From an uncultured Pseudomonadales bacterium (GTDB lineage Bacteria; Patescibacteriota; Microgenomatia; UBA1400; PJMF01), in contig CAZBEW010000003.1 of assembly GCA_964491115.1 (NCBI GenBank), positions 23,026-87,025 on the forward strand: 64,000 nucleotides of DNA, written 5' to 3'. Position 1 is the stretch's first letter; the number at the start of each line of letters is the position of its first letter. Shown piece after piece: positions 1-62,333 of the stretch. Position numbers and translations under genes: made by a program. The notes under the pieces are model-generated. The model was not told where the DNA came from. It saw only the letters and a list, made by a program, of their open reading frames with translations, and searched no databases.

Positions 1-97
1 GCGTTGTAAGCGATTGTGAATAAAGAAAATTAAGACGAACAATAATAAAAAAATTATTAAATAGTCAAAGATATTTAATTTATTAATAAAAACTTTT

Positions 98-4688: not shown

Positions 4689-5810
4689 TTGTTGATGTTA
4701 AAAAATAAAGTAATCATTATCCCGATTGAAAATGCTTGGGATCATAGCGCTGATTTTTTGCGCCAAACAGCCTTTGTTTTGAGTAAACACAATTTGGTTT
4801 ACATTTATGACCACAACAACCATTATTTTTTTGGCAAAAAAAAGCGGAAAAACGTTTACCCAAATTATAAAAACATCATATTTCATCAAGTTAAATATTA
4901 TTTGCCTTTTGAGAGATTTAAAATCATTGATAAGCTCAATCGCTACTTAAGTTTTAAATTATTTTTAGCAAAACATCGTCGTGCAGATAAAATTTTGTGG
5001 ATTTTTTATCCAAATTATTATGATTTTGCACAAGTAAACAGTCGAAAAATGCTAAAAATTTACGATTGTGTTGACTATAGTGAAGATCAGCAAAAAGAAA
5101 ATATTTTAATTAACAGCGTTGATTATTTTTTTGTTAACTCAAAAGCTTTAAAAAACTTGTACGCAAAAAGGAAACTGAACAAGCAAGCAATTTATATTAG
5201 CGCCCAAGGATTTTTCCAACCAAATGATAAAAAAATAAAATCAGTGCCACTTAAAAAAGGCAAAAGCAAAACTGTAATTGGTTATATTGGTGGCCTTAAT
5301 TGTCGCTTGAACTACCCACTACTTGATCAATTAATCAGCAATCACCCGGAATGGCTATTTGTATTTTATGGCCCAGAACAAAAAAATATTGAAAAAGATA
5401 AAATTTATCATACACAAAAATGGATTAAAAAATTAAAAGAACACAAAAATACTCTTTTTGGCTATAGTAATGATCGATATTTCATTTATGGTCTCATAAA
5501 AAGCTTTGATATAGCAATTATTCCTTATAATCTAGACTTGGTTTTCAATTTATATTGTTATCCAATGAAAATTTTTGAATATTTTTATCTGGGGGTGCCA
5601 GTTGTTACTAGTGCTATTCTTGAATTAAAAGAAAAACGTTTTGACGGGCTGATTAACATTGCCAATGATTATAAAAGTTGGGAAAATAGCATAGAAAAAT
5701 GGTTAGAAAACAAAATGCCTGCCAAAAAACAAAGACGACAGAGAGAGTTGGCAATAAACAATAGTTGGCAAAATAAAATTAAAAAAATAGCTAAGGTGAT
5801 AGATTGTTAA
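4689..5810 (+). CDS. Glycosyltransferase (GT1/GT4-like C-terminal domain)
   Basis: 'IGYIGGL..RLNYPLLDQL' and 'PMKIFEYFYLGVPVVTS' resemble the Glycos_transf_1 nucleotide-sugar-binding region (E-x7-E-like region). Confidence 0.45.
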   Translation: MLMLKNKVIIIPIENAWDHSADFLRQTAFVLSKHNLVYIYDHNNHYFFGKKKRKNVYPNYKNIIFHQVKYYLPFERFKIIDKLNRYLSFKLFLAKHRRADKILWIFYPNYYDFAQVNSRKMLKIYDCVDYSEDQQKENILINSVDYFFVNSKALKNLYAKRKLNKQAIYISAQGFFQPNDKKIKSVPLKKGKSKTVIGYIGGLNCRLNYPLLDQLISNHPEWLFVFYGPEQKNIEKDKIYHTQKWIKKLKEHKNTLFGYSNDRYFIYGLIKSFDIAIIPYNLDLVFNLYCYPMKIFEYFYLGVPVVTSAILELKEKRFDGLINIANDYKSWENSIEKWLENKMPAKKQRRQRELAINNSWQNKIKKIAKVIDC

Positions 5811-6701
5811 TTATTTACTTTTGGGTGATAGCTGAGGAATTGTTAACAGAAAGCGATTTGGGGAGTTGGATTCAAAAGAATCAAGTTTTATATTCGAGAT
5901 AAGCAAATTAGCTTTTGATATATAAGTGTGTAGTGTAAAAAATTCTTGCCATTTCTTTACTATACTTTCAAATTGAAGTGCTAAGCCTAAGTTTAGAATA
6001 AATATACCATTTTTATTGAGCGCGCCTTGAATGTCTTTGATAAATGCTCGATCAACAACTCCTTTATTAAAATTATAGCCATCAAACATATCTATAATTA
6101 TTAGATCGTAAGAACCGTTCACTAATTTCGGAAACTTTAAACCATCACCCTGTATTAAATTTATTTCAGAATCGTCTTTTAAAAAATACTTTTTTGCCCA
6201 TTCAATCATCGTTGGATTATATTCAATGACATCAACTTTTTTACCTATTTTATTTTCAACAAAATAACTAGCTAAAGAACAACCAGCTCCACCTAAAAGC
6301 AATATTTTTTGAGAAGATAAATTAGCGGTTAAATATTTAACTATGTCTAAAAAGAAATATTGCTTAGAATTTTTGTTAAAAAGCGGAGATCTACTACTAA
6401 AACCTGATGTTCCAGGTTGAGAAATTTCTCGAAAACTTTTATTTAAATCTCGTGGATAAATAAAATTACGCACATGATAAATATTTCCATCGATATTGCG
6501 TTTATCTAGTAAAAGAAAAAAACCTTCAGTAAAAATTTGATAAGCAATCCGTGCAAGGTAAAAAATGAGTATTCCAATAAGAATTAAGGCTATTGAGTGA
6601 CTAAAATACAAATCAGCAAATAAAATTAAAGATAAAAGAATACAAAAAAAAGTAAAAAATTCTTTTAAATTTAAACCATTTTTTAAATACATTTGCATCA
6701 A
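5811..6701 (-). CDS. Spermidine-synthase-like (aminopropyltransferase fold) protein with N-terminal TM segments
   Basis: 'LLLGGAGCSLASY', 'VDVIEYNPTMIEWAKKYF', 'INLIQGDG', 'YDLIIIDMFDG' fit the spermidine/spermine synthase Rossmann motifs; N-terminal hydrophobic helices. Confidence 0.45.
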   Translation of the reverse strand: MMQMYLKNGLNLKEFFTFFCILLSLILFADLYFSHSIALILIGILIFYLARIAYQIFTEGFFLLLDKRNIDGNIYHVRNFIYPRDLNKSFREISQPGTSGFSSRSPLFNKNSKQYFFLDIVKYLTANLSSQKILLLGGAGCSLASYFVENKIGKKVDVIEYNPTMIEWAKKYFLKDDSEINLIQGDGLKFPKLVNGSYDLIIIDMFDGYNFNKGVVDRAFIKDIQGALNKNGIFILNLGLALQFESIVKKWQEFFTLHTYISKANLLISNIKLDSFESNSPNRFLLTIPQLSPKSK

Positions 6702-6745
6702 ATTATATCATAAGTATAGGACCTCATTTTCTTTGCTATAATTCT

Positions 6746-7537
6746 TTGACTTATAAATTTAAGGTAGGTAATTCTATAGAACATAATATTTCTGATATGA
6801 AATTTTTAAATTATTTTAAAATAATTCTAAGCAAAATTGGATTGAGAGAACTTTTTATCGATTGGGGCTTGATTCATCCAGAATTACAACAAAGCCTTAT
6901 TAAGAGACAAGTTTCTAAAAAATTAATTAAAATTTACGACGGAGATGAGGGTCACGCAGTCAATTTTACTCAATACTCTTTAGGGTTTGGATATATTCAC
7001 TACGCTTTTATTCGCAATATAAAGGCTAAAAACATCCTATGCATCGGTTCTTGTAAAGGTTATATTCCAGCCATATTAGCTTTAGCTTGCAAAGATAATC
7101 AATTCGGAAGCGTTGACTTTGTTGATGCTGCTTACAGTCAATACAATAAAAAAGACAGTAAAAAACATTGGCGTGGTGTTGGCTTCTGGAAAGAAATTAA
7201 TCCAAAAAAACATTTTGCCAAAATTAAAGTAGATCAATATATTGATACTTATGTTATGACTTCGGAAGAATATGCAAAGAAATTTCCCAAGAAAAAATAC
7301 CAATATATTTACATCGACGGCGATCATTCTTATGAAGGAGTAAAGCTCGATTACAAATTATTTTGGCCCAAGCTTGAAAAAAATGGTTTTATGGTTTTTC
7401 ATGATGTGGTAGCTAAGGGATATTTAGATAAAGGCTTGTTTGGTGCTTGGAAATTTTGGCAAGAATTGAAAAATAAAAATAAAATCATTTTTCCTTTTCC
7501 CAAGGAGTCTGGTCTAGGAATTTTACAAAAGGATTAA
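6746..7537 (+). CDS. Class I SAM-dependent methyltransferase (TylF/CmcI, Methyltransf_24-like)
   Basis: 'ILCIGSCKGY' Gly-rich SAM loop; 'YIYIDGDHSYEGV...NGFMVFHD' matches the DGDHSY signature of the TylF/CmcI family. Confidence 0.55.
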   Translation: MTYKFKVGNSIEHNISDMKFLNYFKIILSKIGLRELFIDWGLIHPELQQSLIKRQVSKKLIKIYDGDEGHAVNFTQYSLGFGYIHYAFIRNIKAKNILCIGSCKGYIPAILALACKDNQFGSVDFVDAAYSQYNKKDSKKHWRGVGFWKEINPKKHFAKIKVDQYIDTYVMTSEEYAKKFPKKKYQYIYIDGDHSYEGVKLDYKLFWPKLEKNGFMVFHDVVAKGYLDKGLFGAWKFWQELKNKNKIIFPFPKESGLGILQKD

Positions 7538-7543
7538 AACAGC

Positions 7544-8791
7544 ATGTTTGGTGTAAAAACAAAAATACTAAACAAAATAAACAAAAATTTCAAAACTATT
7601 GATACTGATAAATCTATTACAAAAGTTGAGAGTTATATTTTAACGCGTTTGATAAAAAAAGAACTAAAAAAAGAGGCTGATATTAGTGACAATCAACAAG
7701 TAATAATAAAAAAAACTAATAATTTTGCTTCAAAAATCATTAAAAAAACTAGTGATTTTATGCCAAATAACTTGGGTAATTGGTCTATAAAAAACCCTCA
7801 CACACTTAGCGCTAAACTAGAACTAACCGCCATTAGAACAATAAAAAATCTTTTGGGTGCCAACAAAGAAATAATCGGGCACTTTAGTTCAGGAACAACT
7901 GAGGGTAATATTTATGCGACCTGGATAGCCCGCAATTACTTGCAAAAACAACTAAATTTAAAAGAATCACATAAAATTGTGATAATAAAAAGTTGTCTAG
8001 CCCACTATTCTATTGATAAAGCTGCAGACATAGTTGGTCTAAGACTCATAACAACTGGTATTCATCAATCCAAATATAATATTGATTTAAAATATTTAGA
8101 AAAAAATATTGCCTCTTTATATAATCAGGGAATTAGAGGGTTCATTATTCCATTAACTTTGGGTTATACGGTTACTGGCACAGATGATGAATATGTAAAA
8201 ATTGTTGATTTAGTCAAGAAGTTTGAAAAAGAAAAAGTTGATTGTAAATTCTTTTTATGGATTGATGCTGCATATTCTGGAATGCTAAAAGCTTATCTTG
8301 ACGATGATTTTCATCCTTTTGCTCAAAAAAGTATCCAATTAATCAGCACCGATTTACATAAAAGTTTAGCTATTCCTTATCCAGCTGGTATTTTGCTTTA
8401 CAGAAAAGAATTATTAGACTATATCAAAAAAACAATTCCATACATCGATCAATTTGATACTACGCTTTTAGGATCAAGGCCCGGCTCAAGCGTGTTGGCT
8501 AGTTGGTTTACTTTCATTAATCTAAGTAAAAAAGAGATTAGAAATTATTATAATAAGGCAAATGAAAGAAAAAATAACTTTTTAGAAAAGATTGTGAATG
8601 AAAATATTGGAGTACAAATAATTAACAATGCCACTAGTCTTCAGGCCTGCCTGATTAGCTTTAACAAGGCTTCCGATAAGATTTTGAACGATAAATATCA
8701 TTTAAAGAGTATTAACTATAAACTATTGTTTGGACAAAAAATTAAAACTGTTAAGCTATATAAACTATATTTCTTTATGAATCTGAAATAG
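7544..8791 (+). CDS. PLP-dependent group II decarboxylase (MfnA/tyrosine-glutamate decarboxylase-like)
   Basis: 'HFSSGTTEGNIYATWIAR' (GGTE-like) and 'STDLHKSLAIPYPAGILLYR' (S.D.HK PLP-lysine motif). Confidence 0.55.
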   Translation: MFGVKTKILNKINKNFKTIDTDKSITKVESYILTRLIKKELKKEADISDNQQVIIKKTNNFASKIIKKTSDFMPNNLGNWSIKNPHTLSAKLELTAIRTIKNLLGANKEIIGHFSSGTTEGNIYATWIARNYLQKQLNLKESHKIVIIKSCLAHYSIDKAADIVGLRLITTGIHQSKYNIDLKYLEKNIASLYNQGIRGFIIPLTLGYTVTGTDDEYVKIVDLVKKFEKEKVDCKFFLWIDAAYSGMLKAYLDDDFHPFAQKSIQLISTDLHKSLAIPYPAGILLYRKELLDYIKKTIPYIDQFDTTLLGSRPGSSVLASWFTFINLSKKEIRNYYNKANERKNNFLEKIVNENIGVQIINNATSLQACLISFNKASDKILNDKYHLKSINYKLLFGQKIKTVKLYKLYFFMNLK

Positions 8792-8794
8792 TAA

Positions 8795-9799
8795 ATGAAA
8801 AAAAGCCATCAAATAGATCTAAACACCATTAGTGAAAAAGAGTTTAAGAAAAAAATCAAAAAAAGAAGCTTTGAAAATACCAAGCTGATCGATTCTATCG
8901 AAAAGTATTTTATAGAAAAACGGGGCTATGTATTCAAAATGCCAAAACCAGAAGAATCGGTAATATTACTCTATTCTGGTGGTTTAGACTCGACAGTTGC
9001 CTGGTCTTATCTAATAGAAAAATACAAATTACATGTATATCCATTAGTATTTAAAAATAGAAACAGTTTTGGACAAAAAAAATCGATTTTTTATTTTAAA
9101 AAATATTTTAAAAAAAGATATGGTAATTATTATCACGAGCCCTTAGAAATATATAGCAATTTTTTTCCAGCAAAACTTTTCAAGCAAATGGCTGATCTAA
9201 AAAAGATTCATCCTGAAACCCTGTTGAACTACTTAATAGATAATCACAAATCTTTTAAATTTAATAATTTTTTTCCAGGATCAAATGCTTTAACTCCGAT
9301 TTCTGGCGTTATGTATCAAAAATATCTCGAAAACCAATATAATATAAAAATTAAAGCCATTTTTTTAGCAGTGCTGGCTGGAGATGGCACTGAAATTCCA
9401 TCGCAAAGTTTTACCTATTTGCGTAAGACTATGCTCTTTTTAGACGAATTTATTCAGACAGGAAATTTGCAAATTGCTTCAATTTTTTTTGAAAAGGAAA
9501 TAGGCTTGTTTTGTGAAAAAAAAGATATTATTAAACTAGGAGTTAAAACGCTTAAGATCCCCTTAGAAAAAACCTATAGTTGTTATGCAAAAAAATTATT
9601 TCACTGTAATGACTGCCTTGCCTGTTATTCAAGGCGTCTAGAGTTCAAGAAAGCAAATATTGTTGACAAAACTATGTACTATGATAAGCTTTTTATAGTA
9701 AAAAAAGTGGCTAAATTTAAGCATTTAGCGAAGTGTTATTTATTAAAAGGAAAAACTTTATGCAAGCATATCAAGCGCCAAGTTGTGAAAAAATCGTAA
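8795..9799 (+). CDS. PP-loop ATP pyrophosphatase, QueC-like (7-cyano-7-deazaguanine synthase family) with N-terminal extension
   Basis: PP-loop 'SGGLDST'; C-terminal Cys cluster 'SCYAKKLFHCNDCLACYSRR' resembles the QueC zinc-binding C..C..C..C motif. Confidence 0.45.
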   Translation: MKKSHQIDLNTISEKEFKKKIKKRSFENTKLIDSIEKYFIEKRGYVFKMPKPEESVILLYSGGLDSTVAWSYLIEKYKLHVYPLVFKNRNSFGQKKSIFYFKKYFKKRYGNYYHEPLEIYSNFFPAKLFKQMADLKKIHPETLLNYLIDNHKSFKFNNFFPGSNALTPISGVMYQKYLENQYNIKIKAIFLAVLAGDGTEIPSQSFTYLRKTMLFLDEFIQTGNLQIASIFFEKEIGLFCEKKDIIKLGVKTLKIPLEKTYSCYAKKLFHCNDCLACYSRRLEFKKANIVDKTMYYDKLFIVKKVAKFKHLAKCYLLKGKTLCKHIKRQVVKKS

Positions 9800-9871
9800 T
9801 TTCTGTTCTTTGTGGTGAAAATGAGACAATAGAATAGATAATCTTTTTTGCCAGTTTAATAGAGCCATATT

Positions 9872-10141
9872 ATGTTGCTTTATTGTCGTTCTGATTTTAT
9901 CTTCCAAAGAAAAATCGATAACACTCTTTGTTTATTAAAAAACAAAGACAAATATATTTATAGATTAAACGAAACAGCTAGTTTTTTGTGGCAAATACTG
10001 GAAAAAGAAGCCTCAAGTGAAGACCTAAGTCAAGCTTTAAGTAAAAAATACAATATCCCCTTGGCACAAGCATCCAACGATGTAGATAATTTTTTAACTT
10101 ATTGGCTGAAAGAAAAATTAATCAAAAAAGTTGTTCAATAA
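9872..10141 (+). CDS. PqqD-family protein (RiPP-recognition-element-like peptide chaperone)
   Basis: 89 aa; 'YIYRLNETASFLWQIL...EDLSQALSKKYNIP...ASNDVDNFLTYWLKEKLI' closely follows the PqqD consensus (Y.LN.t...iW.ll.g...eI...l...y.v....a..Dv..fl..L...gli). Confidence 0.5.
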   Translation: MLLYCRSDFIFQRKIDNTLCLLKNKDKYIYRLNETASFLWQILEKEASSEDLSQALSKKYNIPLAQASNDVDNFLTYWLKEKLIKKVVQ

Positions 10142-10555
10142 TCGCAATCTAAACAACAATCTTTGCCAGACGATAAATAATCGCTTATCAAAATAGCTAA
10201 GTTCACGATTTGTTTTTGATTTAGAAACAGCTAGGCCAACAAAGTCTTTTTTAGCAACTGGATCAAAATCAGCAACACTCAAATTATCACCCATGGTCAC
10301 CAACTTAATGCTAGGCTTGTTTTTTGTATATAGTTTTTTAATAACTCGGTGAATAATTAAATTTTTGTCAAAAGCTCGATAAAAACAAATTATGTCTCCA
10401 GTTTGAATTCTGGCAAACTGAGTTTTCTCCACCCAAACATTATCTCCGATTAAAAACAATGGCGCCATGCTATCACTTTTTATTTTTACTTGAAACATCG
10501 CGCCAATTGGTAAATTTAAAAATAATTTTGCAGAATTCAAAGTTTTTTTATTCAT
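10118..10555 (-). CDS. Signal peptidase I, ER/archaeal SipW-type (S26, Ser-His)
   Basis: Box B 'SDSMAPL', box C 'GDNVWV', box D 'IIHRV' (His in place of Lys), box E 'GDNLSVADFD'; translationally coupled with the ABC ATPase gene. Confidence 0.5.
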   Translation of the reverse strand: MNKKTLNSAKLFLNLPIGAMFQVKIKSDSMAPLFLIGDNVWVEKTQFARIQTGDIICFYRAFDKNLIIHRVIKKLYTKNKPSIKLVTMGDNLSVADFDPVAKKDFVGLAVSKSKTNRELSYFDKRLFIVWQRLLFRLRLLNNFFD

Positions 10556-11261
10556 TTTTTAGCATGATTAGCTTGTTGCAGTTTTCTTTTAAATATTGAA
10601 GGTTGTGACTAACTAACAAAAGTGTTGCTCCATTAGCAAACATTTCCTTCATTAATCGATTGGTTTTTTTTCTAAAATTTTCGTCACCCATGCTAATTAC
10701 TTCGTCCAATAATAGAATATCTGGCTCGGCGTGAACAGCAATACTAAAACCTAAGCGCAAGCGCATACCACTGGAATAAGTGTACAAGGGTGCAGTAATA
10801 AAATCGCCAATATCGGCAAAATCAATAATCTGCTTGAGTTTTTGTTCAATTTCTGTTTTTGACATACCCACAATTAGGCCATTTAAAAATATATTTTCTT
10901 GGCCAGTTAAGTCGGGGTGAAAACCAGCATCTAGGCTAATGAGAGAAACAATTTTACCTTTTGTTTGAACCGTCCCACTGGTTGGCTCACAAATACCGGC
11001 AATAATTTTCAACAAAGTGGTTTTGCCAGCTCCATTAGGCCCATAAAAGCCCACTTTTTCTCCCTTATGAATTGTTAAATTCACATCTTTGAGTGCCCAA
11101 AATTCTTCTTTTTTTTGGAAATGTATCATTCGACTCACATCTTCTGCAAGAGTCGGTTTTTCATGGGTGATGGTATATTTTTTGCTAATATTAGATAAAG
11201 AAATTACCACCTCATCGCTGATTTTTTTTCTTCGAATAATTGTTTCTGTTATTATTGTCAT
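10548..11261 (-). CDS. ABC transporter ATP-binding protein (Wzt/TagH-like polysaccharide exporter)
   Basis: Walker A 'GPNGAGKTT', signature 'YSSGMRLRL', Walker B 'ILLLDEV'. Confidence 0.85.
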   Translation of the reverse strand: MTIITETIIRRKKISDEVVISLSNISKKYTITHEKPTLAEDVSRMIHFQKKEEFWALKDVNLTIHKGEKVGFYGPNGAGKTTLLKIIAGICEPTSGTVQTKGKIVSLISLDAGFHPDLTGQENIFLNGLIVGMSKTEIEQKLKQIIDFADIGDFITAPLYTYSSGMRLRLGFSIAVHAEPDILLLDEVISMGDENFRKKTNRLMKEMFANGATLLLVSHNLQYLKENCNKLIMLKNE

Positions 11262-11273
11262 TTGAATCCAAAA

Positions 11274-12128
11274 TTATAGCCAATCGTCAAAGTTTTTACT
11301 TTCTTTTTTAAATACTCGCAGACCCAAATAAAAAACACAAATAATGATCACAACCGCTACCCAAATAAAGTTTGGCAAAGTTATAGGCAAACCCATCAGC
11401 GCATAATGGAACATCTCAATAATAGCTGTCATTGGATTTAAATAGAAAAGCGGTTGTAAAAATTCTGGCAATAAATTTAGTGCATAAACTACTGGTGTCG
11501 CATAAAACCACAGCATGACAGCCAGGGCCACCATAAAATTAACATCGCGAAAGCGCACATTGAGGGAAGAAGTAAATAAAGAAAAACCAACGGTAAAAAA
11601 AACTAATAATAATATGGCTGGTATTACCCACAGCATTCTCAACACGTAAAACAGCAATTGCATTAACCCATAACCCTCCAGCAATAACTTATCGCCAATT
11701 AGCACCACAATTAACAAAAGCAGGGCTACTGCAAAATGAAAAAGATTGGAAAAAATAATTGATAAGACAATGCTTTCTCTGGGAAATTTGGCCTTTTTAA
11801 TTAGACTTCCTTCATAAAAAAAAGCTGGAGTGGTTTTTGTTAAACTTTGCGCAAAAAAATTCCAAGGTAAAAGTCCAGCAAATAAATATAAAAAATAATT
11901 ATCAACCTTGACCGGCACAAAAAATTGGAAAACAAAACCCATCACCAACATTTGTAATAATGGATTTAACACAACCCATAAAAAACCAAAACTAGCCCTT
12001 TTATATCGAGCCTTAATTTCCTTTTGGGTCATGGCAGACAAAAAATCCAACCAATGGCGCTGTTTTTTGCTTAACTTCATAAACAATTTAATTGCTCTTT
12101 TTCTCTTAAAACACTCAAATAATAACAT
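11274..12128 (-). CDS. ABC-2 type transporter permease (Wzm/TagG-like)
   Basis: 6 TM; N-terminal 'KEIKARYKRASFGFLWVVLNPLL' is typical of ABC-2 polysaccharide/teichoic acid export permeases; adjacent to the ATPase. Confidence 0.7.
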   Translation of the reverse strand: MLLFECFKRKRAIKLFMKLSKKQRHWLDFLSAMTQKEIKARYKRASFGFLWVVLNPLLQMLVMGFVFQFFVPVKVDNYFLYLFAGLLPWNFFAQSLTKTTPAFFYEGSLIKKAKFPRESIVLSIIFSNLFHFAVALLLLIVVLIGDKLLLEGYGLMQLLFYVLRMLWVIPAILLLVFFTVGFSLFTSSLNVRFRDVNFMVALAVMLWFYATPVVYALNLLPEFLQPLFYLNPMTAIIEMFHYALMGLPITLPNFIWVAVVIIICVFYLGLRVFKKESKNFDDWL

Positions 12129-12174
12129 AAAAAAACATTAAGACTATCTTTAATTAACTTTTTCGATAAAATAT

Positions 12175-12867
12175 TTGCATATTACCGGGCTTATCCACAA
12201 TGAGCAGCAGCAAATGAAAAATTACAACTTTATTCATCATAGTTTTAAGGGTTTTTTGAAATCCTTTATCGATCTAATTTTAGCTTTAGTCGTTTTATGT
12301 GTTTTGTTGCCTTTTTTCATTATTTTTTGGCCAATTATGATTTGGCAAATTGGTTCACCAATTATTTTTAAACAAAAAAGAACTGGAAAAAATGGAAAAG
12401 TTTTTACCATTTATAAATTTCGTACTATGGTAAAAAATGCAGAATTAATCCGCGCAAAAAATCGGGCTAAGCTTTCTAAATTAAATTATGCCCCACTACC
12501 AATGTTTAAAATTGGTGACGATCCGCGTTTTATTAAATTTGGCAAATTCTTATCTCGCAGCGGTTTAGACGAACTTCCGCAGCTAATTAACATTATTAAA
12601 GGAGAAATGTCCTTAATTGGACCGAGACCGTTACCAGTTGCTGAAGCTAATTCTTTAAAAGATATTGATTACGACTGGTATACTTGGAGACATCAAGTTA
12701 AACCCGGTTTATTCTCACTGTGGGTTTTAGATGATAAAAGACATCAAGATCTGAAAACCTGGAAAAAATTAGAAAGAGAAACGTTAAAACTTAATCTGAT
12801 TCAGCAATATTTATTAATTTTTAAAGTAATTTTTTTACAATTACAAAGAATTTTGCAATTTAATTAA
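12175..12867 (+). CDS. Undecaprenyl-phosphate sugar phosphotransferase (bacterial sugar transferase, WbaP/WcaJ C-terminal-domain type)
   Basis: 'KFRTM...DELPQLINIIKGEMSLIGPRPL' canonical Bac_transf motif; N-terminal TM. Confidence 0.8.
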   Translation: MHITGLIHNEQQQMKNYNFIHHSFKGFLKSFIDLILALVVLCVLLPFFIIFWPIMIWQIGSPIIFKQKRTGKNGKVFTIYKFRTMVKNAELIRAKNRAKLSKLNYAPLPMFKIGDDPRFIKFGKFLSRSGLDELPQLINIIKGEMSLIGPRPLPVAEANSLKDIDYDWYTWRHQVKPGLFSLWVLDDKRHQDLKTWKKLERETLKLNLIQQYLLIFKVIFLQLQRILQFN

Positions 12868-12989
12868 TCATTTTTAAAAATAAACAAAAATAAATACCGT
12901 ATCTTTACAATTAATTGCTACTTGCCTAAGATAGTAAAAATGTATTATGCTTAATTATTAGCAATTTGTGATTGTGTATTTAATAACAT

Positions 12990-14303
12990 ATGTCTGATCT
13001 AAGCAACTTTCTACCCAAAAACCATCTAAAAACTCCAGCAGAAGATGAAATGATCAAACCCATTAGTTCTCTAAATATACCCAAGAATGATCTTCCTCAG
13101 AATTCTACAGTGGGTGGAGGTGCTGGCAATTTAGCAAATAATGATTTAGTAGCAAACAGCGCTTCTTCAGATAATAAGCTTGCAGAAACAAACACTGCTG
13201 GAGAAAAAAATGGAGGAAAAGCTACAAAAAAATTCCAAATAAAATCAGCATCCAAGAAAAAAAATATCCTTCTATTGTTGGCATTACTGTTTCTTTTGGT
13301 CGGCAGTGGAGCTGGCTTACTGTTAATGAGACAGCGTCAAGATACGAGGCAAGAAGCTTACCTAATCTCTATAACTCCAAGCCCCTCTCCTCGTACAACC
13401 CAGCCTCCTGGCGGAGGTGGTTTTTGTGGCCCAAGTGCTTATGGCACTTATTGTGAGGCTTGTCGTACTCGTCCAGGCGGTTGCACAGAAGATGAGCGCT
13501 GGTATGGAAACTGTGTTCTAATTTATTGCCCTAATGGCAATCCAACTGGACAAGGTTGTCATGAAAATGATCCTGATGCATATTGGAAATTTGGTACTTG
13601 TACTAGTTTGCTAAGCGAAGCACGCAACAATCCAGAAGTGCCTGGTTGTTGGCAAGTAGACACTGTTGATAAGAAAAATGTATATTGTCATGTGATGGGC
13701 TGTACAAGTTATGAGCACGATTTAAGTAGATGTGGCAAAACAACACCAACACCACCAACCGTGCCACCAACAGCAATCCCGCCAACAACGATACCACCGA
13801 CCAGGCCACCAACACCAGGAGTTTCAACAACGGTGCAACCGACTGTAACGCCAACAGTGGTGCCTACCAGGCCACCAACACCAGGAGTTTCAACAACGGT
13901 GCCACCAACTGTAACACCAACAACAGTGCCTCCAACAGTAACCGGGACACTGGCTCCAACATCAACTGGTACTCCTGCACCTACAACTGAGCCAACAAAA
14001 GATCCAACATCTGTTCCAAGCACTCCTACACCAATAATTACGCAAGTGATTACTACTGTTGGCTGTAATGAAGCCTGTAAAGAAAACGCCGACTGTGCCA
14101 ATATCAGTCACATTTGTTATGAGGGTTTTTGTCGCCTAGATGTAAACCCAACTGACGTTAATTGTCGACTAGCTGATGGTGGCAATGTTATAGAAAGAGC
14201 TGTAACTGTGCCAACCGAATCTGGTTTTGCCGACTGGTTTAACTTCATTAAAGTTGGCTTTGGCATTCTTGGCTTAGGAGCTTTATTACTACTGCTTCTA
14301 TAA
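12990..14303 (+). CDS. Surface protein: N-terminal TM, 14-Cys domain, Pro/Thr-rich repeat linker, second Cys-rich domain, C-terminal hydrophobic anchor
   Basis: 'ILLLLALLFLLVGSGAGLLL' near the N-terminus; Cys-rich 'CGPSAYGTYCEACRTRPGGC...'; long 'TPTPPTVPPT...' tract; C-terminal 'ILGLGALLLLLL'. Confidence 0.55.
   Translation: MSDLSNFLPKNHLKTPAEDEMIKPISSLNIPKNDLPQNSTVGGGAGNLANNDLVANSASSDNKLAETNTAGEKNGGKATKKFQIKSASKKKNILLLLALLFLLVGSGAGLLLMRQRQDTRQEAYLISITPSPSPRTTQPPGGGGFCGPSAYGTYCEACRTRPGGCTEDERWYGNCVLIYCPNGNPTGQGCHENDPDAYWKFGTCTSLLSEARNNPEVPGCWQVDTVDKKNVYCHVMGCTSYEHDLSRCGKTTPTPPTVPPTAIPPTTIPPTRPPTPGVSTTVQPTVTPTVVPTRPPTPGVSTTVPPTVTPTTVPPTVTGTLAPTSTGTPAPTTEPTKDPTSVPSTPTPIITQVITTVGCNEACKENADCANISHICYEGFCRLDVNPTDVNCRLADGGNVIERAVTVPTESGFADWFNFIKVGFGILGLGALLLLLL
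13800..13931 (+). repeat. Two tandem copies of a 66-nt (22-aa PTRPPTPGVSTTV.PTVTPT..) unit inside a longer Pro/Thr low-complexity tract (about 13738-14040)
   Basis: Direct nucleotide comparison: 'accaggccaccaacaccaggagtttcaacaacggtgc...' recurs with period 66 at 13800 and 13866. Confidence 0.8.
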
Positions 14304-14408
14304 TCTATAAATTGCTGCTTTTATCTTTTATAGAAAAGAAAGCTTTATAGTTTATAGAAAATTGGCAAATAAGTTTTCTCCAGTTGTTTGCTATAATGCA
14401 TATCAAGC

Positions 14409-14485
14409 GCGTGTGTAGCTCAATCGGTTAGAGCTCCAAGCTTATACCTTGGCGGTTTTAGGTTCGAGTCCTAACACACGCACCA
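14409..14485 (+). tRNA. tRNA-Ile with anticodon UAU (encoded CCA end)
   Basis: Manual fold: acceptor GCGTGTG/CACACGC, D-stem GCTC/GAGC, anticodon stem CCAAG/CTTGG with loop CTTATAC (anticodon TAT at 14443-14445), T-stem TTAGG/CCTAA with TTCGAGT loop, discriminator A, CCA. Confidence 0.8.
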
Positions 14486-14487
14486 TT

Positions 14488-14937
14488 ATGAAATTGCTGT
14501 CCAATTTTTTTAAAATATTGTTGGTTTGTGTGCTTTTATTAGTGCTAAGTCTTTTTCTTTATCAAAAAGGTTGGCTCAAAAGTCATCCCCTACAGGATCA
14601 ACTTGCCCAATTTCAGGAGGGAAAGATAAAAAGCCCTGCTGATTTCATTAATTCGTTTAAGAAACAAGACGAACTCAACTTAGAATTGGATCAATTAAGC
14701 AGCAACGCTGGCGAGCAAATTAAGATTACCACTCAAAAAGCTATTGAAGCGGGAAAAGTCGCCCAAGAATTTATTGCTGGATCAATTAAAACTGATGAAT
14801 CATCAGATAAAAACTTAGGAGAAAAAGCTTTTGAATATGGCCAATATGTTTATTGCAGAGCTGTTGTAGATGATTGGGAGCAACAACTTGAGAAAAATAA
14901 CTCTACAACTGAGACACAAGATGCTGAGACACAATGA
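14488..14937 (+). CDS. Hypothetical membrane-anchored protein
   Basis: ORF-track start 14449 overlaps the tRNA; the first ATG after the tRNA (14488) gives 'MKLLSNFFKILLVCVLLLVLSLFLY' as N-terminal TM. Confidence 0.45.
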   Translation: MKLLSNFFKILLVCVLLLVLSLFLYQKGWLKSHPLQDQLAQFQEGKIKSPADFINSFKKQDELNLELDQLSSNAGEQIKITTQKAIEAGKVAQEFIAGSIKTDESSDKNLGEKAFEYGQYVYCRAVVDDWEQQLEKNNSTTETQDAETQ

Positions 14938-14940
14938 GCA

Positions 14941-15741
14941 TTAACGAATACTCGTCCCCACACAGTCTCGATTTGTCAGTGCCCAATATAAATTGTCTTG
15001 CAACATCCCAGAGATGATCATTGATTCAATGCCCTTTTTTGCAAGATTTAATGATTCTTCAATTTTTAAACCCATGCCTCCAGTGACATCAAAACCTCTG
15101 GTGCGATGCAAATCTTGACTAACTTTGGTCCAATTTTGGGCAGTAATTTCTGGCACGATTTGGCCAGTTTTATCTAAAAATCCAGCCACTTCAGTGACGT
15201 GGATAATTTTATTTACCTGAATTTTTTGTTCTAAAAAATAGGGAGCAAGAAAAGCTAAAATTTCTTCAGTCGACCAAATAGTGCAACCCTGCTCTTTGTC
15301 AACTAAAACATCGCCACAAGTAACCGGTAATAAGCCTTTTCGTAAATATTCATTAATCACCTCGGCACAAAAAGCAGCCTTTTTCCTTTTCTTAGTGACA
15401 ATGGTATTACTAGCATAAAAAGAGACAGCAGGTAAATTATGTTTGAGAAATTCATGAACCACCAAACGATTGAGAGTGGCAGCGCTATCTTGGACAATGG
15501 CCATACCCAATAAGCTTTCTTCATTGATAAAACCAGCCATCGTTTGATATTTACTAGCAGGCACATGAGCAAAACTGCCTTGACCATGCCCAACAAGCAA
15601 TAATTGATCTGGGTTTTCCTGTTTAGCGCGAGCAATTTCTCCAACCAAGCGTGTTAGAATGTTTTTTCTCAGCGACATGGGAATTTCTTTATCAGTAATT
15701 ACCGAGCCGCCAAGTTTAATTAGAGTCAAATTTTTTAGCAC
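14941..15741 (-). CDS. ipk: Isopentenyl phosphate kinase (amino-acid kinase fold)
   Basis: 'LIKLGGSVITDK' (identical core to archaeal IPK 'LKIGGSVITDK'), 'VGHGQGSFAH' (HGGGSFGH), 'DVTGGMGLK', C-terminal 'VGTSIR'. Confidence 0.85.
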   Translation of the reverse strand: MLKNLTLIKLGGSVITDKEIPMSLRKNILTRLVGEIARAKQENPDQLLLVGHGQGSFAHVPASKYQTMAGFINEESLLGMAIVQDSAATLNRLVVHEFLKHNLPAVSFYASNTIVTKKRKKAAFCAEVINEYLRKGLLPVTCGDVLVDKEQGCTIWSTEEILAFLAPYFLEQKIQVNKIIHVTEVAGFLDKTGQIVPEITAQNWTKVSQDLHRTRGFDVTGGMGLKIEESLNLAKKGIESMIISGMLQDNLYWALTNRDCVGTSIR

Positions 15742-15758
15742 TGCTACCTTTTTTTAAA

Positions 15759-16655
15759 TTAGTTAAGTAATTTAGTATCTTGATAATAGTTGGTCACTTC
15801 TTCTTGAGGAATTTTTCCTTCTTCTGCTAAAAAAAGCAGTGCTGCTGGTAAGAAATCTAAAACAGCCAAGGTGGCTTTACGAATTTCCCTTTGATCTATT
15901 TCTGACAAATCCTGAAATGAATAAAGTCGCCAGCCTTCTCGTTCGATTTTTGCCAAATCGCCCTCATCAATTAAAATCGCTAGCACAAAAACCATAAAAT
16001 CATACAAGGCCTTGTTTTGCTTATTTTCGCCGATTGGCCGAATTTGTTCGATATTAAATGAAGATTTAGAAAATAAATGCACTTTGTCTTCTAAATCCGC
16101 AACCGATAAACCTGGAACTTCCTCTTCCATTTCTCTCAACATACTCAAGTATAAAGCATTAACAAAAGCTGGTGGCAAATCCCTAAAATCTAGTGAAGCA
16201 TAATTTTCACTGTTATGTAAAAAATCCAACACCACTGTAGATTCTCCATTGTCAACTTTTCCGGTGACAGTATTGATGCCAGTTGGTTTTGTAAAAATAT
16301 CTCGGCCAAAATTTATTGAGCTAGGATCAATCCAAGAATTTTGACTGTTTTTGTCTTCAGGAAAAATCACTCTTTCTCGTTTTTTACTGTCATCATCGGA
16401 TAAATTACTTTCAACATCGTCAAACAATAATATTTTTAAACCCGTTTCGGTGGCAACAAAAGTGAGTGCACCAACACCTACTGCTTTGGAGCGAAAAGCA
16501 AGCTCTTCTTTCATTGAAGAATTGCAGGCTGTGCAGACAGGGCGATCTGGTGGAAATATTTTTGCACCACAAACAGGACAAACGGCTAATTTTAACTCGC
16601 CTTCACTATTGCCATAGCGCGTTTTTTGCAAGCGCCAGTGTCTTGGAACTTCCAT
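15759..16655 (-). CDS. Hypothetical protein with N-terminal zinc ribbon (CPVCG...CTACN)
   Basis: Four-Cys ribbon at the N-terminus; rest unassignable by eye; lies between ipk and the polyprenyl synthase. Confidence 0.35.
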   Translation of the reverse strand: MEVPRHWRLQKTRYGNSEGELKLAVCPVCGAKIFPPDRPVCTACNSSMKEELAFRSKAVGVGALTFVATETGLKILLFDDVESNLSDDDSKKRERVIFPEDKNSQNSWIDPSSINFGRDIFTKPTGINTVTGKVDNGESTVVLDFLHNSENYASLDFRDLPPAFVNALYLSMLREMEEEVPGLSVADLEDKVHLFSKSSFNIEQIRPIGENKQNKALYDFMVFVLAILIDEGDLAKIEREGWRLYSFQDLSEIDQREIRKATLAVLDFLPAALLFLAEEGKIPQEEVTNYYQDTKLLN

Positions 16656-16731
16656 GATAATTCATTAGTCGGAATTCTGTCAGAAATCACGCAAATTTAG
16701 TTAATTTGCGCTTTCATAGTATGATATCTAC

Positions 16732-17838
16732 ATGACTAAACATGACCTTGTTCTTGACGAATATAAAAGCCACATCGCACAGTATTTAACTCATTTTTTA
16801 GCCCAAAAGAAGCAATCTTTTGCCCAAATTAGCCTAGACGACGATGTTTTCAAGACTATTAAAAATTTTGCTTTACGAGGAAAAATGGCTCGAGCCCACT
16901 TATTAATTCTGACTTATCAAGCATTTGGCAACAAAATTGACAAAAAATCCTTGGAAAAATGGCTTTTGCCACTGGCTAGTGCTCTAGAACTGATTCAAGC
17001 TGGTTTATTAATTCACGACGATATTATTGACCAAGATCAACAGCGTCGAGGTCAAGACTCCATTTGGCAATATTACACTTTACAAAAACAGCCAGCTGAC
17101 CAGCATTATGGAAAAAGTCAGGCTATCTGTTTAGGAGATTTGTGTTTTTTTCTTGCGAATCAACTAGTCAATGAGGGCGTGGTGAATTTGCAATTGATGA
17201 CAAATTCAAAAAAAACTTCAGCACTTGATTCTGTATCCATAAAAATTCAAGAATTAATTAATCGGGAAATTAGTCAAGTAATCATGGCCGAAATGCTTGA
17301 TGTGCAATTGGCTGCCGAAGACAAAGTGCCTTCGCTACAGCAAATCACCGAAATGAATCTTTATAAAACCGCTAGATACAGTTTTTCACTGCCTTTCATG
17401 CTGGCTGCTTATGCCGCAAGACAAAGCCATGCAAACATCGAGCAACTAAGCAAAATCGGCGAAAAACTTGGTTTAATTTTTCAAATTCAGGATGATTATT
17501 TGGGAATTTTTGGAGATGAAAAAATTACTGGTAAACCAATCCTTTCTGATGTTAGAGAAGGAAAAAAAACAATCTTTTACTATTATTTAGTGAAAAGCAA
17601 AAAGTTGAACGCTCATGAAAAGAAACTATTAGACCGCTGTTTTGGCGCAGCTTCTATCAATAAAAAAAATGTGGTGGCAGTGCAAGCAATGTTTCAAGTT
17701 CACGCCCTTAATCAAGTTACGAGCTTGCTTGATCAACTAAAGCAAGAAACCATTAAAGATATTGAGCAATTGGAGAATCAAGACTTACAAATATTACTAA
17801 CAAAGCTTTTAAACACGCTCCAGCACCGTCAGAAGTGA
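16732..17838 (+). CDS. Polyprenyl diphosphate synthase (FPP/GGPP synthase family)
   Basis: First Asp-rich motif 'LIHDDIIDQDQQRRGQ', second 'FQIQDDYLGIFGDEKITGKP'. Confidence 0.8.
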   Translation: MTKHDLVLDEYKSHIAQYLTHFLAQKKQSFAQISLDDDVFKTIKNFALRGKMARAHLLILTYQAFGNKIDKKSLEKWLLPLASALELIQAGLLIHDDIIDQDQQRRGQDSIWQYYTLQKQPADQHYGKSQAICLGDLCFFLANQLVNEGVVNLQLMTNSKKTSALDSVSIKIQELINREISQVIMAEMLDVQLAAEDKVPSLQQITEMNLYKTARYSFSLPFMLAAYAARQSHANIEQLSKIGEKLGLIFQIQDDYLGIFGDEKITGKPILSDVREGKKTIFYYYLVKSKKLNAHEKKLLDRCFGAASINKKNVVAVQAMFQVHALNQVTSLLDQLKQETIKDIEQLENQDLQILLTKLLNTLQHRQK

Positions 17839-20876: not shown

Positions 20877-22709
20877 TTATGCCTGCTTGATTTCTTTTAA
20901 TTCTTGCAAAGTGGTGGCTTGTTGCCAATTTTTATCACGACGAATCTTGATTAAACGAGGAAAACGCAGTGCCACTTTGGCCGTATGGCTAGGAGATTGA
21001 GAAATTTCATCAGCCGCTATTTCTAAGACAATATTTGGTTCAAGCCAAACATCAGCTTTTAATTCTTTTTTAAAATCATATTGATGATTAGCTTGATTCT
21101 GCTTGCTTAAATGTTGATCAGCTAATTTTTTAATTTCTTGAAACTGAGCGTCAGTTAAACCGGTGCCTATTTTGGATAAAGTCTTAATTTTGCCACTTTT
21201 TTGATCAAAAACACCAACCAATAAAGCTCCAATCCCAAAATTCTGTCGTTTGCCTTTACCTAAATAATAACCAAGCATGATGCAATCAAGAGTGTCGTTT
21301 AATTTACCCCGTTGACCCTCTGCCTCCTTAATCTTCACCCAGCGCCAACCCTTGCGACCAGCAAGATAAAGCGAATCAGGCTTTTTCATCACTGCCCCCT
21401 CTAAACCAAGAGCTAATTGCTGATGATGATAATCGGTTAACACCTGTGCATCGCTTATTTCTTGGAAAAGGGTTTTTTTTATCACTGGTGAATCAGTAAT
21501 TACTTGCTTTAATATTTTTTTTCGATCCAACAATTTTTCTTCGATTAATGCCTGACCATCAACATAAAGCAGATCAAAAGCATAAAAACAAATCGGCGTT
21601 TCTTGCGCTTTGAGCGCTATTTGATATTTGCGTTTTCTAGAAATAGTTTCTTGAAAAGCGACAAATTTGCCAGAATCAGGATCAAAACCAATGGCTTCAG
21701 TATCAAAAACTGCTGTTTGAGCTGAACATTGAGCTAAGACCAAATCTAATTCTGGAAACATGGCCGACACTTCTTCTAAATTGCGCGTATAAGCCTTGTA
21801 AAAACTACCGTCTGGGAAACCCTTTTTATTAATATGAATTTGAATACGTAAGCCATCATATTTTGGTTCGGCAATGACTCTGCCCATTTTTTCAATAATT
21901 TCTTGACCACTATTCAGTCGCTGACACAAAGCCGGCATTACAGGAATACCTAATTCCATGTGATATAGCTTGCTCAATTCTTCTATCTTGATATTTTCCT
22001 TAAATAAATACAATTGAGCTAATAAACCAAAATCAGCCTTTTTTTGAAAAGCTTCTTCTAGAATTGTTGCTTGACTTTTATCTCCAGTTTTCGCCCAAGA
22101 CAAGGCATCGAGCATCGTCATTGTTGAAAAACCTAAACGCATTTTTCCTAAAATAATTCGTGAAATATATTTGGCTGATAAAGCATTGACCTGCCCCAAT
22201 AAATCAGCCAGTAAATTAATTTTTTTATCTTGAGAGCCTTCACCGCCAACCCTAGCCAGGGCAATTAGTTGCTGATGAACTTGCCCAATGCTTAATTCAT
22301 TTTTCGCCGTCGAAGACGCTGGCAAATCGCCAACCACTTGATAGAACAAGTCGCCTAAATCGCCTAAATCTTTATATCGCTTATTTAATTTATCTATGGT
22401 TAGATCTTGATTAGCATCTTCAAACAAACTTTGCTCGGCAGACAACTGGCTTTGTTCGAGAGGTCCTTCGTGACGAATATAAAAATTCGCTAAAGCACGA
22501 ATCAACATTTTACTTGACAACTGAAATTCTAAACTTTGATAGCTAGCCATCAAACTTCCCTGCAATAAATAGCTCGCGGGAACAATTTCTTCTCGATTTA
22601 ATTCTTGGAATAGTTGAGCTAACAACTCAGTCATCGCTAAACGAGAATTAAGTTTTTCTAAATCAGCTAAATATTGGGCAAAATGATTAAAAAACATATA
22701 TTCCTTCAA
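20877..22709 (-). CDS. ATP-dependent DNA ligase (Lig-I-like, with DNA-binding, adenylation and OB domains)
   Basis: Motif I 'AEPKYDGLRIQIH' (adenylated Lys); length 610 aa. Confidence 0.85.
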   Translation of the reverse strand: MKEYMFFNHFAQYLADLEKLNSRLAMTELLAQLFQELNREEIVPASYLLQGSLMASYQSLEFQLSSKMLIRALANFYIRHEGPLEQSQLSAEQSLFEDANQDLTIDKLNKRYKDLGDLGDLFYQVVGDLPASSTAKNELSIGQVHQQLIALARVGGEGSQDKKINLLADLLGQVNALSAKYISRIILGKMRLGFSTMTMLDALSWAKTGDKSQATILEEAFQKKADFGLLAQLYLFKENIKIEELSKLYHMELGIPVMPALCQRLNSGQEIIEKMGRVIAEPKYDGLRIQIHINKKGFPDGSFYKAYTRNLEEVSAMFPELDLVLAQCSAQTAVFDTEAIGFDPDSGKFVAFQETISRKRKYQIALKAQETPICFYAFDLLYVDGQALIEEKLLDRKKILKQVITDSPVIKKTLFQEISDAQVLTDYHHQQLALGLEGAVMKKPDSLYLAGRKGWRWVKIKEAEGQRGKLNDTLDCIMLGYYLGKGKRQNFGIGALLVGVFDQKSGKIKTLSKIGTGLTDAQFQEIKKLADQHLSKQNQANHQYDFKKELKADVWLEPNIVLEIAADEISQSPSHTAKVALRFPRLIKIRRDKNWQQATTLQELKEIKQA

Positions 22710-27647: not shown

Positions 27648-28103
27648 TTGTTGTTGATGAAAAAGAAATTAAGGTCCTTCTTTCTAATTTTATTATTTCT
27701 CATCTCACATTTTTTAAGTTTAAAAACTTTAAATGTCAACTTTTTACCTCAAGTTAATGCACAAAGTCAAAGTCCGAGCCCAAGTCCAGGTGACGAAGAA
27801 GTAGAAATTGATTTAGGAAGTTATTTAAAATTAAGTGGTGGCCAAAAAGTCAGTGATGTTTTTCAAAAACCTAGCGATATGCTTAATTTAGTTATAAAAG
27901 TGGTTTTTGTTGTAGTTGGTTTACTTCTTTTTGCAATGGTGGTCATTGCTGGTTTGTCAATGATTGCTTCAGGCACAACTGATAGTAAAGATAAGGCTAA
28001 AGGCACGATGACTTCAGCTTTAATGGGGTTTATCGTTATTTTTGCTGCCTATTGGATTATGCAAATTATTCAAGTTCTAACTGGAACAGATATTGGCTTT
28101 TAA
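27648..28103 (+). CDS. VirB2/TrbC-like T4SS pilin family protein (paralog 1 of 7)
   Basis: Signal peptide, then two hydrophobic helices flanking a short 'SG.TDSKDKAKG' loop. Confidence 0.55.
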   Translation: MLLMKKKLRSFFLILLFLISHFLSLKTLNVNFLPQVNAQSQSPSPSPGDEEVEIDLGSYLKLSGGQKVSDVFQKPSDMLNLVIKVVFVVVGLLLFAMVVIAGLSMIASGTTDSKDKAKGTMTSALMGFIVIFAAYWIMQIIQVLTGTDIGF

Positions 28104-28132
28104 AAAGGAGCTTAGTATAATGAGGGTTTGAA

Positions 28133-28573: not shown

Positions 28574-28592
28574 TTAATAATAATTAACAATT

Positions 28593-29030: not shown

Positions 29031-29039
29031 TAAAAAATT

Positions 29040-29474: not shown

Positions 29475-29492
29475 CGTTAAAAAGCAAAAAAT

Positions 29493-29852: not shown

Positions 29853-29857
29853 ATTTT

Positions 29858-29903: not shown

Positions 29904-29916
29904 AAAAGGAGAAATT

Positions 29917-30321: not shown

Positions 30322-30331
30322 ATAAATCACT

Positions 30332-30378: not shown

Positions 30379-30390
30379 ATAATTAATATC

Positions 30391-31542: not shown

Positions 31543-31546
31543 AATT

Positions 31547-41250: not shown

Positions 41251-41616
41251 TTAATCTAAAATTTTTAAAAAAACTACGTCTAGGTCTTTTTTTAAATCTA
41301 TGATGGAAAAGTCCTTTTTTTTATAGACTAGTACCACGTCAACACTCTCTTTAAAGATGTTTTTAGCAGCACTCTTGTTCAGCTCGTCGGCTTTTTCTCT
41401 AATTAAATTATAAATTAATCGACGATGGTGGTTGCGCTTAGTTGCCTCTGGGAAAAGGCGAGAGGGTGCAAGTGCGGCAACTCTCAAGAGCGAAAGATTG
41501 TTGTGTTGATAATATACAATTAAGTTTTCAGTTAACAGTCGCTTGCTTTTTTGAAAATCAAAACCATTATTATCTATCGCTAAAGATAGATTAAGGCGGT
41601 GTTTTTTTGCTAACAT
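41251..41616 (-). CDS. rnpA: Ribonuclease P protein component
   Basis: Size, position between rpmH and yidD, basic 'ATKRNHHRRLI' RNR-like motif. Confidence 0.55.
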   Translation of the reverse strand: MLAKKHRLNLSLAIDNNGFDFQKSKRLLTENLIVYYQHNNLSLLRVAALAPSRLFPEATKRNHHRRLIYNLIREKADELNKSAAKNIFKESVDVVLVYKKKDFSIIDLKKDLDVVFLKILD

Positions 41617-62330: not shown

Positions 62331-62333
62331 TTC

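Follow-up and report, generated by a model that had tools for sequence, protein, structure and literature searches.

An encoded UAU anticodon in a chromosomal tRNA-Ile gene with relatives across the Patescibacteria

How does a bacterium read the isoleucine codon AUA when its chromosome carries a tRNA-Ile gene whose anticodon is UAU already in the DNA, unlike the canonical tRNA-Ile2(CAU) that depends on the lysidine enzyme TilS? The question is raised by a gene at 14409-14485 of a 64-kb stretch (contig CAZBEW010000003.1 of assembly GCA_964491115.1, 64,000 nucleotides), which is called the window throughout. The gene is a genuine tRNA gene. It is very probably a functional, chromosomal gene for a minor tRNA-Ile(UAU) and a member of an orthologous family that extends across the Patescibacteria, or Candidate Phyla Radiation (CPR). 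The window has a GC content of 35%, is dense in open reading frames (ORFs) under the standard bacterial code, and contains dnaA, dnaN, rnpA, yidC, jag, recF and the genes for valyl-tRNA synthetase (ValRS), peptidyl-tRNA hydrolase (Pth) and ribosomal protein L25; it is the chromosomal origin region (dnaA-dnaN) of a Patescibacteria/CPR bacterium of the Microgenomates type.

The gene, its fold and its family

ARAGORN finds one tRNA in the whole window, a tRNA-Ile with the anticodon tat at 14409-14485 on the + strand. The Rfam model RF00005 matches 14409-14482 over its full length (model positions 1-71) with 70.9 bits, where 29 is the gathering score (E = 1.7e-13); no other Rfam family exceeds its threshold anywhere in the window. 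Direct reading gives GCGTGTG-TA-GCTC-AATCGGTTA-GAGC-T-CCAAG-CTTATAC-CTTGG-CGGTT-TTAGG-TTCGAGT-CCTAA-CACACGC-A-CCA, in which the four stems are free of any mismatch, the discriminator is A73, the CCA end is encoded and there is no intron. The anticodon loop has seven nucleotides, with U33 and A37 on either side of TAT at positions 34-36, as is proper to a tRNA of the UAU type. The gene and its decoding parts are as follows.

14409..14485, + strand: tRNA-Ile(UAU) gene, 77 nucleotides, CCA encoded (ARAGORN, Rfam RF00005, direct reading, covariation over 98 distinct members)
14441..14447, + strand: anticodon loop CTTATAC (C32 U33 U34 A35 U36 A37 C38), with the anticodon TAT at 14443-14445 (direct reading; ARAGORN puts the anticodon at gene position 35)
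14436..14452, + strand: anticodon arm CCAAG-CTTATAC-CTTGG, a signature common to Patescibacteria (pattern scans of GTDB genomes and metagenome contigs)

An earlier sequence-only reading of the locus had proposed the loop CUUAUAC and the anticodon UAU, and the ARAGORN call and the direct reading agree with it; neither a different anticodon or isotype nor the failure to find a tRNA, which that reading had named as the grounds for giving it up, came out of the ARAGORN and Rfam runs.

GTDB species genomes and metagenome contigs were scanned with a pattern made of the anticodon arm and the T loop, in which position 34 could be C or T and position 38 was left free. The species genomes yielded at least 120 matches, with T34 in 120/120 among the matches listed, and the metagenome contigs likewise at least 120, with T34 in 118 and C34 in 2 among those listed, so that U34 is found in 238 of the 240 listed matches together. 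At position 38 the 238 U34 matches listed have C in 219, U in 18 and A in 1. The named genome records with a matching arm represent about 19 CPR lineages among the matches listed. By their titles they are Saccharibacteria; Woese-, Davies- and Pacebacteria; Berkelbacteria; Doudnabacteria; WWE3; and, within the Paceibacteria/Parcubacteria groups, Uhr-, Kaiser-, Vogel-, Lipton-, Terry-, Yanofsky-, Yonath-, Colwell- and Nealsonbacteria and Spechtbacterales. The sequence-only reading had called such a tRNA rare. That description holds for the published surveys and fails in the lineage of the gene itself, where GTDB species records with the U34 arm number at least 120 and metagenome contigs with it at least 118.

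The two metagenome matches with C34 were considered as tRNA-Ile2(CAU) siblings and ruled out, as their bodies are unrelated and carry A38; one of them lies in a phage-like tRNA cluster. No C34 sibling with the body of the window tRNA occurs among the 240 matches listed.

The window tRNA and 97 further relatives from other genomes, 98 distinct sequences in all, were aligned. The cloverleaf is kept throughout, with 100% of 2058 stem cells paired, and compensatory double changes are seen at 10 pairs, of which 7 make up the whole acceptor stem and 3 belong to the T stem. Covariation scores 0.414, versus 0.10 in shuffles and at most 0.067 with slid partners; the tRNA is well beyond a chance resemblance. 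A73 is invariant, U12-A23 is present in 97/98 sequences, and the canonical U8, A14, G18, G19 and GTTC are present in the alignment. These data point to an orthologous family of tRNA-Ile(UAU) genes carried by many Patescibacteria.

The position of the gene on the chromosome is also shared. The nearest public relative by synteny (L180, from the metagenome-assembled genome (MAG) Paceibacterota AS06rmzACSIP_209; loci are denoted by L numbers) has an identical tRNA and neighbour proteins that are 83-97% identical; other syntenic relatives are L184 (Woesebacteria Go_SlDig_bin_357) and L233 (Pacebacteria UBA1364), of the Microgenomates-type CPR. In relatives at 55-97% amino-acid identity the tRNA is syntenic with housekeeping genes, namely those for isopentenyl phosphate kinase (IPK), polyprenyl synthase, Pth and DNA ligase.

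The CPR-type tRNA-Ile(UAU) is also present in public MAGs whose records are named 'uncultured Pseudomonadales', 'Gammaproteobacteria' or 'archaeon', several of which are syntenic with the window (L123, L131, L134, L147, L161, L171, L176, L188, L190, L196, L204, L234 and others; also L124). These titles look like taxonomic mislabels. In two MAGs a pattern match is present on each of two contigs (L136 and L221 in CAYGDK01; L179 and L215 in CAZDNW01), which are either two gene copies or mixed bins.

AUA usage and a proposed mechanism

In the window AUA makes up 14.5 per 1000 codons and 18% of the isoleucine codons, roughly the frequency of AUG, and belongs to the 'high' class of PMC12514573. It is present in 52/56 window ORFs, with 3 in dnaA, 5 in dnaN, 9 in valS and 7 in yidC. 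Since nearly all ORFs use it, dnaA, dnaN and valS included, a reader of AUA is indispensable. The AT-rich genome with many AUA codons, of which the sequence-only reading had spoken, is thus what the 35% GC content and the AUA count describe, and a UAU tRNA would explain how AUA is read in a genome that uses it in nearly every gene.

To assess the meaning of the codon, window genes were compared with their orthologues in related loci, 35 pairs in all. ATA codons of the window stand opposite ATT/ATA/ATC at 47% of the orthologous positions, opposite Leu codons at 20.5%, Val codons at 9.6% and ATG at 3.6%. This substitution profile is like that of ATT and ATC and unlike that of ATG, and therefore AUA is isoleucine here. 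Together with the invariant A73 and the near-invariant U12-A23 pair, this is consistent with the assignment of the gene to the isoleucine type.

The elements that bear on expression of the tRNA are the following.

14389..14397, + strand: extended -10 promoter-like element TGCTATAAT, ending 11 nucleotides before the mature 5' end, with no good -35 (direct reading; function inferred)
14488..14937, + strand: ORF of 149 amino acids with an N-terminal membrane helix (ORF list; a homologue follows the tRNA in L180, L184, L190, L135 and L204)
41251..41616, - strand: rnpA, the RNase P protein (Pfam PF00825)

The tRNA would be transcribed from the extended -10 element as its own probable promoter. TTTGCTATAATG is found at an equal distance from the tRNA in the relatives L180, L184 and L190. 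A two-hexamer promoter scan did not report the element, because it has no good -35. Transcription may continue into the downstream ORF. Its ATG stands 2 nucleotides past the CCA of the tRNA, no Shine-Dalgarno sequence precedes it, and no + strand terminator is found within 14000-15000; because of the missing terminator and the short distance to the ATG, the tRNA and the ORF are probably co-transcribed. The short 5' leader of the tRNA would be trimmed by RNase P, as is usual in tRNA processing, and the 3' CCA would be at hand in the transcript.

Isoleucyl-tRNA synthetase (IleRS) would then charge the tRNA with isoleucine, recognizing A73, U12-A23, A35-U36 and A37, and A37 is expected to become N6-threonylcarbamoyladenosine (t6A). 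On the ribosome U34 would pair with the third A of AUA, while AUU and AUC would be read by a tRNA-Ile(GAU) encoded elsewhere. The lineage most likely decodes AUA without TilS and lysidine, as Mycoplasma mobile does. Competition from tRNA-Met, the lineage-specific anticodon arm and the ribosome could each, or in some combination, limit the misreading of AUG. Within the arm, C32, a pyrimidine at 38 and the two A-U pairs at 29-41 and 30-40 are the features proposed to matter, the C32/pyrimidine-38 loop and the A-U-rich lower stem being candidates for tuning the decoding; the idea draws on what is generally known of 32-38 effects.

Several observations weigh against this account. The minimum free energy fold of the single tRNA sequence is not a cloverleaf; such folds are common for tRNAs, and this one was set aside because the covariation evidence was preferred. 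The invariance of the anticodon stem among the matches was imposed by the search pattern and is no measure of conservation, and because the pattern fixed that stem, the true share of CPR genomes with the exact arm cannot be derived from the matches; two results are free of this bias, the composition of position 38 and the absence of the arm from the viral UAU tRNAs listed. The identity set of Escherichia coli IleRS, which includes A73, U12-A23, A38, C29-G41 and C4-G69, contrasts with the window tRNA in three places, where the latter has C38, A29-U41 and U4-A69. A search for IleRS over the tRNA-bearing loci, with the window ValRS as bait, recovered only a ValRS (L124) and no IleRS. Finally, Lactobacillus casei, L. 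plantarum and Cyanothece carry both the UAU and the TilS systems. The large class I synthetase in the window was considered as an IleRS and ruled out, as it is ValRS.

Competing explanations

The double systems proposed in the Lactobacillus and Cyanothece species bring up the possibility that this genome, too, has tilS and tRNA-Ile2(CAU), so that the UAU tRNA would be a second and partly redundant reader of AUA. We consider this possible, though on the unlikely side. tilS has been reported in about 98% of annotated bacterial genomes, the DNA inspected from this genome amounts to 64 kb, and some CPR loci hold CAU tRNAs of ambiguous identity. On the other hand, U34 is kept over very divergent CPR lineages, and the 240 listed matches hold no C34 gene of the same body. 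The sequence-only reading had tied a UAU anticodon to the loss of tilS. No PP-loop TilS (PF01171) is present in the 64-kb window. A tblastn search with E. coli TilS against the window and 120 genome and 120 metagenome loci, which amount to 1.69 Mb of CPR DNA around 238 tRNA-Ile(UAU) genes, gave nothing better than E = 1.6. This search is of low power and its outcome is weak evidence, because about two matches would be expected even if every genome of ~0.9 Mb had one copy.

Eight CPR loci contain, within a few kb of tRNA-Ile(UAU), two neighbouring CAU tRNAs that by eye look like fMet and Met: one is of the initiator type, judged from a 1:72 mismatch, and the other is an elongator.

Loci with two CAU tRNAs: L125 6731-6905; L128 4881-5088; L136 321-686; L192 1289-2370; L201 6970-7120; L211 3723-3874; L284 6798-6951; L329 3233-3407

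The two genes are adjacent in 6/8 loci, 220 nucleotides apart in L136 and 940 nucleotides apart in L192, and none of the eight loci has a third CAU tRNA. A second elongator CAU body type (GCCGGTG..., in L192 and L239) may belong to either Met or Ile2. A genome without tilS is the more likely, though unproven, situation, and it is plausible that in such a genome the UAU tRNA is the sole decoder of AUA.

A second possibility leaves the identity of the tRNA as proposed and varies only its chemistry: U34 or U36 would be modified (candidates are pseudouridine, a 5-substituted U and the product of a lineage-specific enzyme), and the modification would make the tRNA discriminate AUA from AUG. There are precedents in the pseudouridine-A-pseudouridine anticodon of eukaryotes and in the 5-cyanomethyluridine (cnm5U) of haloarchaeal mutants. 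A special modification at U34 had also been put forward by the sequence-only reading as the usual companion of a UAU anticodon. This does not hold generally: the two bacterial cases that have been studied, M. mobile and a tilS-suppressor strain of Bacillus subtilis, have a plain U34, and because it is unmodified in M. mobile a special modification is not required. The window genes include none that points to a U34-modifying enzyme and no MnmA/E/G, CmoA/B or TruA-like genes.

One lead in the window was a gene pair 4.6 kb upstream of the tRNA.

7544-8791, + strand: pyridoxal phosphate (PLP)-dependent decarboxylase, histidine/tyrosine-decarboxylase-like
8795-9799, + strand: QueC-like PP-loop ATPase, 4 nucleotides after the decarboxylase (SGGxDS motif scan; far below the true QueC cut-off)

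TilS and TiaS adenylate their target and then add an amine, and the pairing of a PP-loop ATPase with a decarboxylase resembles this chemical logic. A scan of the window and the genome loci for the PP-loop motif SGGxDS found the QueC-like protein in the window and in L135, L180 and L204, that is, in syntenic relatives only. The homologues are 29-42% identical, against mostly 49-97% for their neighbours (one adjacent signal-peptidase-like ORF is at 34%). Because it is divergent and lies within a low-GC glycan cluster, the QueC-like gene appears to be a variable glycan-modification gene and not a conserved tRNA enzyme. It was rejected as the wobble-modifying enzyme on its restriction to syntenic relatives, its divergence and its place in the glycan cluster beside an ABC exporter, and the pair is probably an amine-adding glycan-modification module. 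A modified wobble position is a doubtful addition to the proposed decoding by a plain U34.

That a mobile element or prophage brought in the tRNA to boost AUA reading, in the manner of many phage tRNA-Ile(UAU) genes, is very improbable. tRNA(UAU) genes are abundant in viral contigs (at least 120 matches to a generic pattern), a low-GC block lies upstream at 1-12 kb, and in L180 the tRNA is immediately followed by an additional, inserted gene. However, the arm of the window tRNA is found in 0/120 viral UAU tRNAs among the matches listed, a collection of 50,697 phage genomes offers no better match than 86% over 57 nucleotides, and the synteny with housekeeping genes is conserved in several relatives. 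No integrase or attachment repeats are present nearby, none flank the extra gene of L180, and the genes of the low-GC block form a polysaccharide cluster and no prophage. The window tRNA has no match in E. coli genomes.

The GC step at ~12 kb was also considered as the edge of a genomic island, an idea rejected on the polysaccharide cluster, the lack of an integrase and the lack of a tRNA-end repeat. The low-GC block (1-12900) has a GC content of 29-31% versus 35-39% elsewhere, and ATA at 21 per 1000 codons versus 12.7 in the rest. Its genes encode a Wzy_C O-antigen-ligase-like protein, a giant protein with BamB/PQQ repeats, a TuaH-like family 1 glycosyltransferase (GT1), two methyltransferases, a TagG/TagH-like ABC exporter, an S24/S26 peptidase-like ORF and a sugar-phosphate transferase.

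It is scarcely credible that the gene is a pseudogene or that its tRNA is charged with another amino acid (for example, with AUA as Met as in mitochondria), for although the isotype was assigned from the anticodon alone and some CPR lineages recode UGA, ATA faces isoleucine codons at 47% and ATG at only 3.6% of orthologous positions, and covariation is perfect with invariant tertiary nucleotides.

Genomic surroundings and known AUA-decoding systems

The gene directly upstream of the tRNA is the same in the syntenic Microgenomates-type relatives examined.

12990..14303, + strand: secreted Cys-rich, Thr/Pro-rich protein with a C-terminal anchor (translation; synteny)

In its product a long Thr/Pro-rich linker joins a Cys-rich domain to a second Cys-rich module, after which comes the C-terminal anchor. 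No family match was found for it, and it is the best window match for an ORF in 19 tRNA-bearing loci, over stretches of ~100-130 amino acids. The ORF downstream of the tRNA (14488-14937) matches no Pfam or NCBIfam family. Its mRNA would be almost leaderless once the 3' end of the tRNA had been processed. The spacing between the tRNA and the ORF is ~16 nucleotides in L190 (L190 2852-2870). In L180 (5153-6453) the gene for a 337-amino-acid membrane-anchored protein stands between the two, without flanking repeats, and the tRNA has no encoded CCA.

Farther from the tRNA, archaeal-type IPK, polyprenyl synthase, UppS, a NUDIX hydrolase and an ATP-dependent DNA ligase of archaeal/eukaryotic type are encoded at 14941-17838, 20877-22709 and 30814-32206; that a bacterial chromosome has this set is typical of the CPR. 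ValRS (32261-35007, + strand) has 775 amino acids, matches positions 2-696 of an 860-position NCBIfam model and is without the C-terminal coiled-coil arm; the ORF that overlaps its end (141 amino acids) is a small membrane protein and not the missing domain. Seven tandem small ORFs lie at 27648-30801, six of them with a T4SS_pilin domain (PF18895) and the second without a Pfam match, and a further two ORFs with a pilin domain, of larger size, are found at 61749-63281. At 44964-47216 a gene that abuts dnaA encodes a VirB4/TraG-type ATPase, and a PrgI-like protein is encoded at 48381-49397. The pilins, the ATPase and the PrgI-like protein make up a type IV secretion system of the Patescibacteria type.

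tRNAs of this kind are routinely annotated in GenBank records. A bacterial tRNA-Ile(UAU) is a known type, and it is the lineage-wide distribution that is worth attention. A 2013 survey lists nine tilS-less bacterial species in three clades, tRNADB-CE has tRNA-Ile(UAU) in 19 species, the tRNAscan-SE 2.0 survey has it in 17 genomes (Bifidobacterium, Mycoplasma and Neorickettsia being named), and a 2026 preprint still terms it rare in bacteria. In a literature search of non-exhaustive coverage no paper was found on lysidine or TilS in Patescibacteria, CPR or Saccharibacteria.

Taken singly, the window gene is a modest result, a functional tRNA of a known and uncommon bacterial type, and the wider pattern matters more. 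For the proposal that the Patescibacteria/CPR as a whole, which make up much of bacterial diversity, decode AUA by an encoded tRNA-Ile(UAU) with a near-invariant arm, without the TilS/lysidine system, we judge the balance to be even. If it is true, lysidine-independent AUA decoding would be a deep trait of a major bacterial clade and not the outcome of a few late, independent losses, and the CPR would offer a natural test of the proposal that the ancestral AUA reader had a UAU anticodon (Taniguchi et al. 2013, PMC3575796). If tilS is missing, annotation pipelines and essential-gene lists that assume TilS would need an exception for this lineage, TilS-targeted antibacterial ideas would be inapplicable to the CPR, and work on how a plain U34 keeps from reading AUG could well start from the conserved C32/C38 arm.

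Among known systems, the canonical tRNA-Ile2(CAU), modified to lysidine by TilS or to ava2C, does the same job as the window tRNA is proposed to do, that of a dedicated minor isoacceptor for AUA. Unlike it, the window gene encodes T34, and therefore modification at C2 is neither needed nor possible. The anticodon is likewise encoded in the tRNA-Ile3(UAU) of Nanoarchaeum equitans, Korarchaeum, Bifidobacterium and Neorickettsia, where UAU replaces the CAU/modification system in reduced or symbiotic genomes; these organisms belong to other phyla, their tRNA bodies are unrelated to that of the window tRNA, and a eukaryote-type IleRS is a feature of Bifidobacterium and Neorickettsia. The eukaryotic cytosolic tRNA-Ile(UAU) is also dedicated to AUA, but there an intron directs pseudouridylation, whereas the window gene has none. 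Phage tRNA-Ile(UAU) shares the anticodon and differs in the arm in 120/120 of the genes listed, while the window gene is chromosomal and syntenic. In B. subtilis an unmodified UAU anticodon, in the tilS-suppressor tRNA-Ile1(UAU), sustains AUA decoding without TilS (PMC3919564); that tRNA is a laboratory G34-to-U mutant of the major tRNA-Ile1, whereas the window gene is natural and conserved in its lineage.

The closest likeness is to the tRNA-Ile2(UAU) of M. mobile (PMC3575796), which is also bacterial and chromosomal, with an encoded UAU that reads AUA as isoleucine, a small AT-rich genome and A37 available. In M. mobile U34 is unmodified, t6A37 is present, IleRS is adapted by a single change of Trp to Arg (Arg865, at the site of Trp905 in E. 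coli), the ribosome rejects AUG and tilS is absent, all of which has been shown there, while the CPR tRNA is known from facts at the level of the gene. The two differ further in distribution and in the arm. The M. mobile tRNA is an isolated case in the Tenericutes and is thought to be a recent derivative of a CAU tRNA, whereas the window tRNA has counterparts in many divergent lineages of the Patescibacteria, and the conserved arm with C38 is a feature of the window/CPR tRNA itself. With these distinctions, M. mobile provides the model for the way in which the window tRNA most likely works.

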